Source: Myxococcales bacterium (GTDB lineage: Bacteria; Myxococcota_A; Polyangia; Polyangiales; Polyangiaceae). From it: DNA of 12,806 bases. Under the pieces are notes generated by a model, which worked only from the letters and a program-made list of their open reading frames with translations, was not told the DNA's origin and searched no databases. Location of the stretch: positions 1-12,806 of the forward strand of contig JANYHK010000037.1 of NCBI GenBank assembly GCA_025359105.1. Direction: 5' to 3'. The position numbers were made by a program, and so were the translations under genes. The stretch's first letter is position 1. Every line of letters starts with the position of its first letter. Below are positions 5,307 to 7,958 of this stretch, piece after piece.

Positions 5307-5415
5307 GAGGGTAGGAAGCCCAAAGCCGATCCCATGGCGAAGCGGACCCCTGGGATCCCCGGGCCCAGCGCCTGTCACGAGCCGTTCGGTTCGTGACAAC
5401 CTGCCGGCCTAATTG
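5307..5415. repeat. Copy A of a 109-bp interspersed repeat with an internal hairpin
   Basis: It matches 7850-7958 at 108 of 109 bases in direct orientation. The single difference is A at 5324 versus T at 7867. It contains the hairpin tgtcacgagcc-gttc-ggttcgtgaca (5373-5398) and the overlapping palindromes GGATCC/CCCGGG/GGGCCC. Confidence 0.95.
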
Positions 5416-5416
5416 A

Positions 5417-5829
5417 GGCGCGCTCGACGGCCTCTTCTTCGTCGTCACGTTCGCGATCGTCGGCCCTTCGCTCCTCGTGGACCTGCGCAGCATCGCGCGG
5501 GGTGACCTCAACGCCTACGCGGCCTTGGTGTCGGATGTCGGTGATCTGGTTGCGCTCACGCTGGTCGCGCCCGTCCTGCGCACGGCGTTGGCCCTTCGCG
5601 GCGGACGCCTCGTCTGGCCGTGGCTCCTCGTCACCGCGACCGAGCTGACCTGGCTCCTGTACGACGCGGCGGGCGCTCTCCTCCCGCTTTGGTACGGCGG
5701 ACAGGCCCGCTCCCGCACGAAGAGATCCTTCGCGCCCTCGCGTGCTCACTGGCCTTCCTCGCCGGCCTCGCGCAGCGTCACGTCGTGGGCGTCGAGGCCC
5801 TCGACGCCGCACCGCCCGTCGAAGGGTGA
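5417..5829 (+). pseudogene. 5'-truncated, frameshifted fragment of a polytopic membrane protein
   Basis: The frame opens immediately after the repeat (TGA at 5414-5416) with no start codon or signal sequence: GALDGLFFVVTFAIVGPSLLVDLRSIARGDLNAYAALVSDVGDLVALTLVAPVLRTALALRGGRLVWPWLLVTATELTWLLYDAAGALLPLWYGG. The protein-like sequence then continues in another frame from about 5700: GPLPHEEILRALACSLAFLAGLAQRHVVGVEALDAAPPVEG, with stop at 5827-5829. Several hydrophobic helices are present. No family was recognised. Confidence 0.5.
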
Positions 5830-5855
5830 GACCCATGCCGCACGCGGCCGCGGGC

Positions 5856-6401
5856 TCACCGCAGGAGCGAATCGAGGTACCCGCGCATCCTCGGCGCGTG
5901 ACCTTCGTGCGGGTCCGGAGCGCCGCTGCCGAAGCGCGCGCGGTTGCCGTTCTTGCGGGTGAGCGTCATCGTGCAACGCGCCTGGGCGATCTCACCGCCC
6001 GCTCCGAAGGACGCGACCTCCTTGGGCGTCTTCGTCGCCTGCACCAGCTCCGCGATCTGAGCGCGCGCCGACGTCGGCAGCATCGACTCGCGACGGAACG
6101 GACCTCCGCACGCGTCGGTCCCCGACACCCGTACGGTCTTGCGCGCGAAGTCCACCACGTACTTGCCCGACGCGTCACGTGACGTGCGGCCCGAGCACAG
6201 CGGGGCACCTCCCTCGAAGGCGAGCGTCAGCTTGACGTCGTCGGGCTGGAGCTCGAACGGCTCGCCGGGTGTGGCCTCGGCCTCCGCCGAGGTGACGGAG
6301 GTTCGGCCTTCTCCCCCGGACCCGGAGGCAGGCGAGGCGGCCGGCGGCGCGGCGCAGGACGAGGCGAGGAGGATCAGGAACGACGGTGCGACACGTTTCA
6401 T
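5856..6401 (-). CDS. Small putative lipoprotein (181 aa), function unknown
   Basis: This is the internal ATG at 6401 of the 442-aa track ORF. It is preceded by GGAGAGGAA about 6-8 nt upstream. The N-terminus MKRVAPSFLILLASSC resembles a signal peptide with a lipobox, followed by a Ser/Gly/Pro linker. The stop is TGA at 5856-5858. The longer ORF upstream is Arg-rich antisense of the DUF1566 gene. Confidence 0.7.
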   Translation of the reverse strand: MKRVAPSFLILLASSCAAPPAASPASGSGGEGRTSVTSAEAEATPGEPFELQPDDVKLTLAFEGGAPLCSGRTSRDASGKYVVDFARKTVRVSGTDACGGPFRRESMLPTSARAQIAELVQATKTPKEVASFGAGGEIAQARCTMTLTRKNGNRARFGSGAPDPHEGHAPRMRGYLDSLLR

Positions 6402-6545
6402 CGGTGTTCCTCTCCGTACGCTCGCCGCCGCCGCCGGCTCCCCACGAACACCGAGCCCGAGACGGCGGAGAGACCCCCGCGCACCCGGGAAGATCGCGAC
6501 GTCGGGCGCGTATACCGGGGGCCAGTCCTCCGTGACGCCCCTTGC
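6402..6545. promoter_or_regulatory. Divergent intergenic region expected to hold the promoters of the two lipoprotein genes
   Basis: This call rests on position only: a 144-bp gap between divergently oriented start codons (6401 minus, 6546 plus). I could not recognise any specific -35/-10 elements. Confidence 0.3.
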
Positions 6546-7829
6546 ATGCACCTTCTCCGAACGCTCGCCGCCGCTTCCTCGTTTCTCGTGCCGTTCGCCG
6601 TCCTCGCGTGCGGCGGGGGCCCCCCCTCCCCGCTCTCGCCCAAGGCGCCAGACTATGCGCCGGCCGGCGAGACGAAGTGTGCCGTCGCCTCGAGCCACTC
6701 TTCGCCGCTCGTCGTCGAGTGGCCAAGCAGTGAGCGCGCGAAGCTCGAGTCGCTCGCGCGCGGCGGGGTCGTCGTCGTCCGGTACAACGACTGCCGCATG
6801 AAGGCGCTCGCGGGGTGCCGCGTGCGAGCGGCGTACCGCTACGTCGCGCTCACACCGAAGCACGACGTCCTCCGCGTGCGAAGCCAGGACGAGCTCTACG
6901 CGTCGATGCCCGTATACGCCGCGTCGTTCGAGGGGAAGCTGAAACAGGCCGGCGAGCTCACCGTCACGATGACGATCGTGGGCCGCTACGAGGCAGAGCG
7001 CGCCAGCGCGTCCACGGCGGATCTCGAGGGGGACTGCGCCGAGGCGACGCACATCGTCGCGGCGGTCACGTCGGGCGCCTTCCAGTTCGCGGCCGGCGGC
7101 GCAACGGAGGCGAGCGCCGGCGCGTCCATGCTGGGCGCCTCCGCGGGCGGCAAGAGCGGAGCGGCGCGCGAGACGTTGGCGCAAGACGGCGACGAAAAGG
7201 CTTGCGGCGCGTCGGCCGAAGGCTCCACCGCGCCGCCGTTCGGGTGCGGCGCGTTCCTGCGGCTCGAGGTCGAGCCGATCGCGAAGGGAGCCGCGACGGC
7301 GAAGACGGCACGCGCGACGGCCCCGTCCGCTCCGTCCGCGACGACGACCACGACCGCCGCGTCACCACCCGTCGACACCACCTGCCCCGGCGGCACGCGC
7401 TTCGTCAAAGGCCGCGGCTGCGTCGCGGAGATGGCGCCGTCCAGCCGCTACACCGTGAACGGCACCGCCGTCACCGACAGCACCACAAAGCTCACCTGGA
7501 TGCGCGCCCCCGAGACGTCCGGTGTGCCATGGCAAGAAGCGAAGTCCTTCTGCGCCGGCGTCGGCGCGGACGGCGGCAAGTGGCGCCTCCCGACGAAGGC
7601 AGAGCTCCTCGCCCTCGGCGAAAACCTCCCGGAAGGGATCGACCGCAACGCCTTCCCCGCGGCGTCGTCGCAGGAAAAAGCCGGCCTCTCCGAGACGGTC
7701 TACTACTGGACGTCCACGCCGCACGCGATCTCCGAGTCGATGGCGTGGGCCGTCCGCTTCGGAACCATGGGCGCGCAAGCCAGCGTTGTGCCGCGTACGG
7801 CGAAGAGGTCGGTCCGCTGCGTGAAGTAA
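6546..7829 (+). CDS. Lipoprotein with an uncharacterised N-terminal domain, a Thr/Ala/Pro linker and a C-terminal DUF1566 (Lcl C-terminal, C-type-lectin-like fold) domain
   Basis: This is a 427-aa ORF. The signal peptide and lipobox are MHLLRTLAAASSFLVPFAVLAC. The C-terminus is TVNGTAVTDSTTKLTWMRAPETSGVPWQEAKSFCAGVGADGGKWRLPTKAELLALGE...VYYWTSTP...AWAVRFGTMGAQASVVPRTAKRSVRCVK. This matches the DUF1566 pattern (TGLxW, W-x-x-A-x-x-x-C, WRLPT-x-x-EL, YW-S/T-S-T, vRCV). The stop is TAA at 7827-7829. Confidence 0.85.
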   Translation: MHLLRTLAAASSFLVPFAVLACGGGPPSPLSPKAPDYAPAGETKCAVASSHSSPLVVEWPSSERAKLESLARGGVVVVRYNDCRMKALAGCRVRAAYRYVALTPKHDVLRVRSQDELYASMPVYAASFEGKLKQAGELTVTMTIVGRYEAERASASTADLEGDCAEATHIVAAVTSGAFQFAAGGATEASAGASMLGASAGGKSGAARETLAQDGDEKACGASAEGSTAPPFGCGAFLRLEVEPIAKGAATAKTARATAPSAPSATTTTTAASPPVDTTCPGGTRFVKGRGCVAEMAPSSRYTVNGTAVTDSTTKLTWMRAPETSGVPWQEAKSFCAGVGADGGKWRLPTKAELLALGENLPEGIDRNAFPAASSQEKAGLSETVYYWTSTPHAISESMAWAVRFGTMGAQASVVPRTAKRSVRCVK

Positions 7830-7849
7830 GGAGTGCGCGCTGATGCCCA

Positions 7850-7958
7850 GAGGGTAGGAAGCCCAATGCCGATCCCATGGCGAAGCGGACCCCTGGGATC
7901 CCCGGGCCCAGCGCCTGTCACGAGCCGTTCGGTTCGTGACAACCTGCCGGCCTAATTG
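7850..7958. repeat. Copy B of the 109-bp interspersed repeat
   Basis: See copy A. It starts 20 nt after the DUF1566 stop codon. Its hairpin lies at 7916-7941. The minus-strand Thr/Pro-tract ORF reads into it and terminates inside it at 7918. Confidence 0.95.

Follow-up and report, generated by a model that had tools for sequence, protein, structure and literature searches.

Stand-alone copies of a 109-bp module in a Myxococcales contig, probably the oriIS-side end of an IS91/ISCR-superfamily element

Insertion sequences (IS) of the IS91 family have a terIS end upstream and an oriIS end downstream of the transposase gene tnpA, and possess neither terminal inverted repeats (TIR) nor target-site duplications (TSD) (PMC13181058). 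Their oriIS comprises one imperfect subterminal palindrome or two, and failure to terminate is common (PMC13181058). For ISCR27, too, the published oriIS (GCGGTTGAACTTCCTATACC) is located downstream of the transposase gene (bioRxiv 10.1101/2021.01.14.426698). In Pseudomonas syringae, right-end fragments of IS801 of 229, 360 and 679 nt were found to be mobilised and represented about one quarter of the trapped IS801 events (PMC3189936). Here, these systems are compared with a pair of 109-bp direct repeats found in a 12,806-nt stretch of DNA from a Myxococcales bacterium (assembly GCA_025359105.1, contig JANYHK010000037.1, positions 1 to 12,806; this whole stretch is hereafter called the window). 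The repeats are probably stand-alone copies (solos) of the outer, oriIS-side end of a rolling-circle element of the IS91/ISCR superfamily; this 109-bp end is referred to below as the module.

The repeat pair and its parent element

A repeat search of the window identified a direct pair (family D5) at 5307-5415 and 7850-7958 (start-to-start distance, 2543), whose members are identical at 108 of 109 positions, the sole mismatch being A5324 versus T7867. Copy 1 is delimited by the junctions ..ctcgaag|GAGGGTAGG.. and ..CCTAATTG|aggcgcg.., and copy 2 by ..gatgccca|GAGGGTAGG.. and ..CCTAATTG|gctcgga..; the flanks of the two copies are unrelated and identity ends sharply on both sides. A pair of such length and identity cannot be due to chance in 12.8 kb. 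The repeat search and the read-out of the junctions agree with an initial annotation made from the sequence alone, which had described near-identical direct repeats with abrupt ends. It had also reported that the window encodes no transposase, which is indeed the case, and the 4.6-kb parent unit described below matches the window at the two modules only.

The parent element was recognised on other contigs (designated by the prefix L). Indeed, in a contig of a palsa Myxococcales metagenome-assembled genome (MAG) (L002), an open reading frame (ORF) matching Y2_Tnp (72 bits, cut-off 20.9) and Zn_Tnp_IS91 (66 bits, cut-off 26.3) ends 93 nt before a copy of the module. These two Pfam families score above their gathering thresholds in L002, L048-L057 and L065, with the module located 91-93 nt past the stop codon. 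A protein search with the L002 Y2 transposase retrieved hundreds of close relatives; one of them, P0022 (98% identical), was fetched at 10 places, to all of which a single unit of about 4.6 kb is common (L048-L057). Four of these 10 places are on contigs named contig_N, up to 0.5 Mb long and apparently obtained from long reads. The unit contains, in this order, (i) a gene for an IS481/IS3-like DDE transposase (423 aa), (ii) a 97-aa ORF (orf97), (iii) a serine resolvase gene, (iv) the Y2 transposase gene, (v) a 91-nt spacer and (vi) the 109-nt module. Similarity between the 10 copies starts at |TGCTGATGCC (|TGCTGATGCCCACC), beyond which the flanks differ, and stops exactly at the outer end of the module (...CTTCCTACCCTC|). 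The conserved end of a larger element, one of the candidates put forward in the initial annotation, is therefore what the module is found to be: the last segment of the unit in 10 independent contigs.

The module also varies together with the transposase that it follows. Read in the orientation of the parent transposase, copy 1 lies on the minus strand (CAATTAGG...GGGCTTCCTACCCTC) and is 100% identical to the modules that follow the Y2 transposase in L002 and L065 and 97% identical to those of L049-L057. The L065 module, carried by a 3.3-Mb contig, is preceded by a 94% identical transposase. After a 78% identical transposase (L059) the module is diverged yet alignable, its terminal motif being kept as GGCTTCCTACCCTC, and after a 67% identical transposase (L064) only the terminal CTTTGGGCTTACTACTCGC is recognisable, with the motif GGGCTTACTACTCGC.

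Both window solos have their ori end on the left, at 5307 (copy 1, minus strand, inner boundary at 5415) and at 7850 (copy 2, 7850-7958, same module and same orientation, with the single substitution T7867). In brief, each copy includes: an outer terminal motif, GAGGGTAGGAAGCCC (reverse complement of GGGCTTCCTACCCTC), at 5307-5321 and 7850-7864 on the minus strand, which is the end point of similarity between units and the putative oriIS end; a first subterminal palindrome predicted by folding at 5328-5357 and 7871-7900 (GATCCCA, a 16-nt loop with AAGCGGA, TGGGATC); a second one, also predicted by folding, at 5374-5397 and 7917-7940 (GTCACGAGCC-GTTC-GGTTCGTGAC), with a perfect 10-bp stem; and an inner boundary, GCCTAATTG followed by AG or G, at 5407-5415 and 7950-7958, which is the constant end of all solos. 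In the parent element, sequence runs on without a break across this inner boundary into the 91-nt spacer and the transposase gene. The loop motif of palindrome 1 (AAGCGGA/AAGCG) is kept in diverged subfamilies of the module, where the stem sequences differ.

Several features of the module are those of described oriIS regions. As in IS91, IS801, IS1294, ISCR1 and ISCR27, it follows a gene for a Y2/HUH transposase that has an N-terminal zinc-binding domain; as in the IS91/ISCR elements generally, it bounds the element, the two ends of which have no inverted repeat in common, and no target duplication is made. Its two subterminal imperfect palindromes are reminiscent of IS91 and IS801, and its terminal motif CTTCCTACC resembles CTTCCTATACC of ISCR27. 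When the module end, GGGCTTCCTACC(CTC), is set against the ISCR27 oriIS (..AACTTCCTATACC), the single published oriIS used in this comparison, CTTCCTA..CC is common to both. All 29 copies of the module inspected at this end read ..CCTACCCTC, and the next base is C in 18 of them; CTC(C) is either a target tetranucleotide or a part of the element.

No inverted repeat links the two ends of the unit (TGCTGATGCC.. and ..CTTCCTACCCTC), which are unrelated, and no duplication of flanking bases was detected in the 10 units and about 25 solos. Furthermore, the left end of the unit (TGCTGATG...) pairs as an inverted repeat with no other site in the unit, and there is therefore no sign that the IS481-like gene is a separate nested IS. 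The initial annotation had seen no target duplication and no real terminal inverted repeats around the window copies; both observations are confirmed and are accounted for by the asymmetric ends of a rolling-circle element, which have neither TIR nor TSD. It had also recognised no described family, a view that has to be revised, since the repeats belong to the IS91/ISCR rolling-circle superfamily. The element is an uncurated member of this superfamily and the repeats are mobile-element debris, neither a new kind of element nor an RNA gene.

The parent also departs from the described IS91/ISCR elements in three respects: (i) it is GC-rich and myxobacterial, with a transposase below the curated NCBIfam cut-offs, (ii) in one lineage the 4.6-kb unit unites this transposase with a DDE transposase, a small ORF and a resolvase, and (iii) no evident CTTG/GTTC tetranucleotide is present by the ori end, a motif being found instead at the opposite flank. 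Indeed, the five bases preceding the unit left end (position ~321 in L048-L057) carry a [C/G]TA[C/G]N motif (STASN) in nine of nine distinct flanks, the pentamers being CTACC, CTACT, CTATG, GTAGC, CTACG, GTAGA, CTACG, GTAAA and GTAGG. STASN thus lies on the side opposite to the IS91 target tetranucleotide and resembles the CTACC found inside the unit's own ori end; no description of such a flank motif was found in the IS91-family literature examined.

In L051, L059 and L065, the transposase gene has a resolvase gene linked to it. In L059 (6858-9907), a tyrosine integrase and an AAA_21 ATPase are encoded downstream of the relative of the Y2 transposase, and in L065 (2305-4503) the resolvase and transposase genes are separated by an inserted gene for a large serine recombinase of 732 aa.

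Solo copies, their flanks and the alternative explanations

Public collections were scanned with the second hairpin as a pattern. The hairpin was thus demanded by the search, and its conservation among the metagenome matches is therefore uninformative. Forty-four metagenome stretches, mostly from one palsa/peat study, matched this pattern, of which 40 are real loci and four are chance hairpins; further matches to the module were obtained in the palsa Myxococcales MAG (L002) and in a contig binned as Gemmatimonadaceae (L003). After removal of replicates, about 25 distinct solo contexts with differing flanks remain, in palsa/peat metagenomes and myxobacterial MAGs, so that the repeat, as a check of copy number suggested by the initial annotation was to establish, is not limited to the two window copies. 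The boundaries are the same in these contexts: (G)GAGGGTAGGAAGCCC ... GCCGGCCTAATTG, then AG or G. An intermediate form, a 169-nt right-end fragment, is present in L005/L021, and diverged subfamilies with about 65-75% identity are found in L015, L024/L045, L038/L040 and L044. Two variants of the module were distinguished. Most solos are of variant A, which is linked to the unit in L002 and L065; variant B is linked to the full-length unit in L048-L057 and occurs as a solo at L009:5160-5268. In all, solos number about 25, versus a few unit-linked copies of the same variant. They are also clustered, with six pairs of modules 1-4 kb apart, five of them, including the window pair, in direct orientation and one (L036) inverted.

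The host of the element is a Polyangia-type myxobacterium: L002 belongs to a Myxococcales MAG and homologues of flanking genes are from Labilithrix, Pendulispora and Polyangiaceae. A search of a plasmid database gave no match. The L003 copy (JANYIN010000043.1, 3428-3534), from a different study, has two single-base deletions and adjoins a truncated gene for a PETase-like hydrolase; its presence in a contig binned as Gemmatimonadaceae represents either a binning error or a transfer between phyla.

The flanks of the solos were analysed with a codon log-odds model trained on the genes of the window, which was used to call the coding strand. In many flanks, a coding frame stays open as far as the junction, and almost all solos abut truncated genes. 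The Pfam profiles matched by these flank fragments are correspondingly incomplete: Pyr_redox_2 (profile 231-291 of 291), NMO (211-328 of 331), Fic (52-93 of 93), PmbA_TldD_3rd (157-220 of 220), DJ-1 (119-164 of 165), DUF5010 (from 135), DUF1993 (from 22), FA_desaturase (from 23) and, in the window itself, UvrD_C (1-146 of 350). The two flanks of each solo examined belong to unrelated genes. In L019, the only solo with sense-strand coding on both sides, residues 1-157 of a multihaem cytochrome (411 aa) are joined to the C-terminal ~150 residues of an unrelated protein of ~480 aa; homologues cover one half or the other of this fusion but never both, and in an 85%-identical relative neither gene is found within 6 kb of the other. 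Some copies have one flank in common: at least 410 nt are shared by L011 and L033 on the ori side, 61 nt by L002 and L005/L021 on the inner side, and a common inner-side junction (the end sequence of an IS1111-type element) by L020 and L046, as far as the L046 contig extends. One ori-side flank moreover occurs both beside full units (L049, L050) and beside solos (L011, L033), the other flank differing each time. On its right side, the L047 solo directly adjoins the terminal residues of an Rhs/YD core (RWYSPYLGTWISADP...DPSGL), with a presumed toxin tail behind it, an arrangement resembling an orphan toxin module.

Solos resemble the IS801 miniatures (Bardaji et al. 2011, PMC3189936) in that they are pieces of the ori side only, with a fixed outer end and a discrete internal start, and coexist with full-length copies; the IS801 miniatures depend on a transposase acting in trans, and by analogy the solos could be mobile in the same way. 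They differ from them in that the unit is only 109 nt long and outnumbers the unit-linked copies of its variant, in that the solo flanks never match whereas the trapped IS801 miniatures were recovered as sacB insertions, and in that the solo inner end begins with (CT)CAAT and not with a GAAC-type tetranucleotide.

The candidate of a non-autonomous, miniature inverted-repeat transposable element (MITE)-like sequence, also proposed in the initial annotation, stands in part, the module being stand-alone in about 25 other contexts. Like bacterial MITEs (MITEPsy1, Correia elements), the solos are small, non-coding, non-autonomous and multi-copy, and their near-identity implies recent spread. A strict MITE, however, keeps both parent ends as TIR and makes target duplications, and a solo has neither: only TAGGnnGnC is common to its two ends, the parent left end is absent, and no TSD was seen in about 25 copies. 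Helitron 3' ends also combine a subterminal GC-rich hairpin near a defined terminus, the lack of TIR and TSD, and adjacent gene fragments, but Helitrons have a Rep/Hel transposase and 5'-TC...CTRR-3' termini inserted between A and T, and are found in eukaryotic hosts.

It is proposed that the transposase would start at the ori end and that the event would stop at an internal site about 107-109 nt further in (..GCT|CAATTAGG..), giving a solo; the right-end miniatures of IS801 are the documented precedent for such a one-ended stop, and right-end fragments of two lengths (109 and 169 nt), present beside full-length units, lend indirect support to one-ended rolling-circle events. The dispersed near-identical copies could then serve as portable homology and as landing sites for IS110/IS1111 elements. 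Rearrangements at the copies would leave each of them between fragments of unrelated genes, and recombination between copies would scramble the flanks. In short, we infer that the solos were formed by the Y2 enzyme and that their flanks were scrambled later.

Five points weigh against the interpretation of the repeats as solo oriIS ends of this superfamily. (i) The window contains no transposase, the parent being linked to it through identity with other contigs. (ii) The transposase scores 278 against a cut-off of 925 for ISCR clade Ia and 86 bits against 125 for IS91 (NCBIfam); it is a distant member of the superfamily, outside the curated NCBIfam IS91/ISCR families. (iii) The ori end shows no conserved CTTG/GTTC-type target, only the invariant CTC and then the C-biased base (18/29). 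(iv) Simple transposition predicts that the two flanks are halves of one locus, which was seen in no solo examined. (v) Solos lack STASN, and their inner-side flank ends in C in 25 of 26 (..CCT| or ..GC|). As STASN is present in full units but not in solos, the inner junction of the solos may have been made by a reaction other than that of the full units.

According to the main competitor, the solos are immobile relics, each at the place of a former full-length unit: a site-specific deletion or inversion would have removed everything inward of ..GCT|CAATTAGG.. and joined a distant site, through either the serine resolvase of the unit, with the quasi-palindrome GCTCAATTAGGC as its site, or an intramolecular reaction of the Y2 transposase. 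Unrelated and mostly truncated genes on both sides of every solo examined, the ori-side flank common to L049, L050, L011 and L033 with an always different other flank, the weak flank preference proper to the solos in place of STASN, and the resolvase gene beside the transposase in L051, L059 and L065 are all consistent with such a decay. So is L038, which resembles a reciprocal product, its unit sequence ending at CAATTAGG and continuing into unrelated DNA; reciprocal junctions, in which a unit ending in ..GCTCAATT is joined to foreign DNA, are the form that this model would predict. The resolvase site is putative, however, and about 25 solos versus a few unit-linked copies of the same variant fit amplification better than one-for-one decay. 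Furthermore, the 169-nt form (L005/L021) shows that the inner end is not unique, and IS801 provides a tested precedent for mobile right-end fragments. Decay into relics is thus a serious but clearly less likely explanation than mobile oriIS-side ends.

It was also considered whether the window arrangement could be an artefact, a mis-join through a repeat that is real making the 2.4-kb bracketing unreal. The source is a short MAG contig (12,807 nt), there are dozens of near-identical copies of the repeat, and Logan L001 and L058, the sole independent assemblies, are interrupted at or close to the repeats and give no confirmation of the linkage. L001 (2,490 nt), from the Logan assembly of SRR20627842, corresponds to window positions 5389-7878; it begins 27 nt short of the end of copy 1, halts 29 nt inside copy 2, and has A, not T, at the variable base of copy 2. 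Such breaks within both copies are expected of a k=31 graph that meets a true multi-copy repeat. A mis-join is nevertheless improbable. Indeed, identical pairs of left and right flanks were recovered in 7/7 replicate assemblies from different samples, and random assembly chimerism is therefore no explanation for them; typical reads are longer than 109 bp; a single base distinguishes the two window copies; and junctions of the same kind are seen for the full unit in long-read contigs (L048-L051, L065).

The module is also a target for other elements. Three IS110-family transposases are present among 101 neighbouring ORFs surveyed with Pfam (83 families matched). An IS1111-type element (L020, 10-1832; transposase at 106-1446, NCBIfam IS110, 230 bits; subterminal inverted repeat TGAACCGTCGGC) is inserted between module positions 91 and 90, directly after palindrome 2, with duplication of AC, and this insertion occurs in at least three different copies (L039/L020; L046; L011, 6240-6259). 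Other IS110 elements are inserted at position 98/99 (L050, 4818-6299) and at about 105 (L022, 5338-6597), and also in L052/L053. The module is thus a repeated landing site of the IS110 family, at no fewer than three positions and in at least five copies. The idea of a recombination hotspot, likewise raised in the initial annotation, is retained as a secondary property, in view of this targeting and of the flanks exchanged between copies.

Repetitive extragenic palindromic (REP) and attC sites are known targets of IS110/IS1111 elements. With REP/BIME/REPIN and attC sequences the module shares the nature of a short structured repeat with recurrent, fixed-position IS110-family insertions and a 2-nt duplication, from which one could suppose that the 109-bp unit is an independent REP-, MITE- or attC-like repeat of the host into which the 4.5-kb unit and the IS110 elements merely insert. 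The at least three positions targeted by IS110/IS1111-type elements in at least five copies, the spacing of copies 1-4 kb apart and mostly direct (5/6 pairs), as in cassette arrays, and a GTAGG near one end of the unit would be in line with this. Such an origin is nonetheless very unlikely. Divergence of the module parallels that of the Y2 transposase, the ISCR-like terminal motif being retained, and flank statistics differ between full units and solos, which is unexpected if units were inserted beside solos. It has no R'/R'' core sites and two hairpins rather than the single long one of attC, and copies are not confined to intergenic DNA, their flanks being ORFs truncated at the junction. Neither a RAYT nor an integron integrase was noted, whether in the window or among the fetched loci scanned with Pfam/NCBIfam, with three unplaced Phage_integrase-family ORFs in the top-25 list; no Y1/RAYT family is in this top-25 Pfam list (101 neighbouring ORFs, 83 families matched in all).

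The weakest candidate, a structured small-RNA gene or other functional RNA repeated in the genome, which the initial annotation had listed, can practically be dismissed: two stable hairpins (z = -2.4, plus strand) and the loop motif AAGCGGA kept across subfamilies speak for it, but the element has no Rfam match (Rfam 15, E<=1) and no tRNA or tmRNA (ARAGORN) in the window or in related loci (eight for Rfam), no promoter-like or terminator-like site was found in or beside the repeat, a double change occurs in only 1/17 predicted pairs, the position at a transposon end already explains the palindromes, and copies abut truncated ORFs in either orientation.

Four other ideas were tried and rejected. 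An integron attC/cassette nature was discarded on the basis of the absence of core sites (RYYYAAC...GTTRRRY) by eye, the two-hairpin fold, the inverted pair in L036 and the lack of an integrase in the window. ARAGORN did not confirm a tRNA-like T-arm suspected upstream of the L020 copy. A template/variable repeat of a diversity-generating retroelement, prompted by the A-to-T difference, was ruled out by about 25 copies in unrelated contexts, and retron msDNA captured at breaks was dropped after the parent element was found.

Genes around and between the window copies

To the left of copy 1, a pseudogene fragment of a UvrD-like helicase (4554-5306, minus strand) is frameshifted, matches positions 1-146 of 350 of the Pfam UvrD_C profile, has no N-terminal helicase domain, and has a frame that is open up to copy 1. 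The bracketed segment contains (i) an N-terminally truncated hydrophobic ORF fragment (5416 to approximately 5830, plus strand, no Pfam match), which reads away from copy 1, is open right at the repeat and has a coding signal that weakens past about 5700, (ii) an intact gene for a 181-aa lipoprotein (5856-6401, minus strand, lipobox LLASSC, no Pfam match), also called as a gene in L001, and (iii) an intact gene for an Lcl_C/DUF1566 lipoprotein (6546-7829, plus strand, Pfam 1.3e-20), whose stop codon is 20 nt before copy 2. These three genes are those that the initial annotation had assigned to the segment; it had overlooked the frameshifted UvrD_C fragment and the ORF entering copy 2 described next. 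No second copy of the bracketed two-lipoprotein segment was found. Homologues of the Lcl_C lipoprotein are myxobacterial (at most 78% identity); no synteny shared with the window was detected around them and no orthologous empty site was reached. Exact-protein look-ups from the window matched only Logan fragments of the same sample.

To the right of copy 2, a protein with a signal peptide and a Pro-Thr-rich region is encoded at 7959-8349 (minus strand). Its frame enters copy 2 and stops inside the hairpin (ORF 7918-8349), and the protein is probably truncated at its C terminus. Within this ORF, a dense imperfect tandem repeat (8034-8309, period 6-12, GTCGGY units) beside copy 2 encodes the long Pro-Thr run on the minus strand, and the Logan contig L058 ends inside it. 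Between the Pro-Thr ORF and a histidine-kinase gene, about 950 nt (8350-9300) give no convincing coding signal in any frame, which is unusual for a gene-dense window of 70% G+C.

An ATG of the module (5335 and 7878, minus strand) opens an outward frame across the ori end (MGSALGFLPS...), which in copy 1 is in frame with the UvrD fragment. Across loci, 3/4 of the sense-coding ori-side flanks are in this frame versus 1/3 expected, numbers too small to judge. The oriIS regions of ISCR1 carry outward promoters (PMC6218425); no promoter-like site of the sigma-70 type and no terminator-like site were found in or next to the repeat.

Implications for the IS91/ISCR family and soil myxobacteria

Given the polarity of IS91, a read-through that starts at 5307, passes 5415 and stops at 7958 could in principle mobilise the two-lipoprotein segment of the window; the segment could equally be lost through homologous recombination between its two flanking copies. 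A further, rather unlikely hypothesis is that the solos are the scars of an undescribed rearrangement reaction, in which the Y2 element or its linked serine resolvase joins the internal site (107-109 nt from ori) to distant chromosomal sites, deleting or inverting the DNA in between, with 109 bp left as a scar flanked by pieces of unrelated genes. If true, this family of elements would be a major cause of truncated genes and reshuffled genomes among soil myxobacteria, and one that is marked by its sequence, and direct solo pairs such as that at 5307-7958 would be cassettes open to mobilisation by rolling-circle read-through.

In summary, the 109-mer reliably marks an uncurated IS91/ISCR-like family, abundant in palsa/peat Myxococcota, and it explains contig breaks and pseudogene junctions in MAGs of these organisms. 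Three features go beyond the routine: ori-end miniatures far outnumber the unit-linked copies of the same variant, fragments of different genes border every solo examined, and the IS110 insertions make the module a natural target set for RNA-guided recombinases. The IS91 family has been studied mainly as a vehicle for the capture of antibiotic-resistance genes, and the natural system present here could show how the ends of such elements rearrange DNA.

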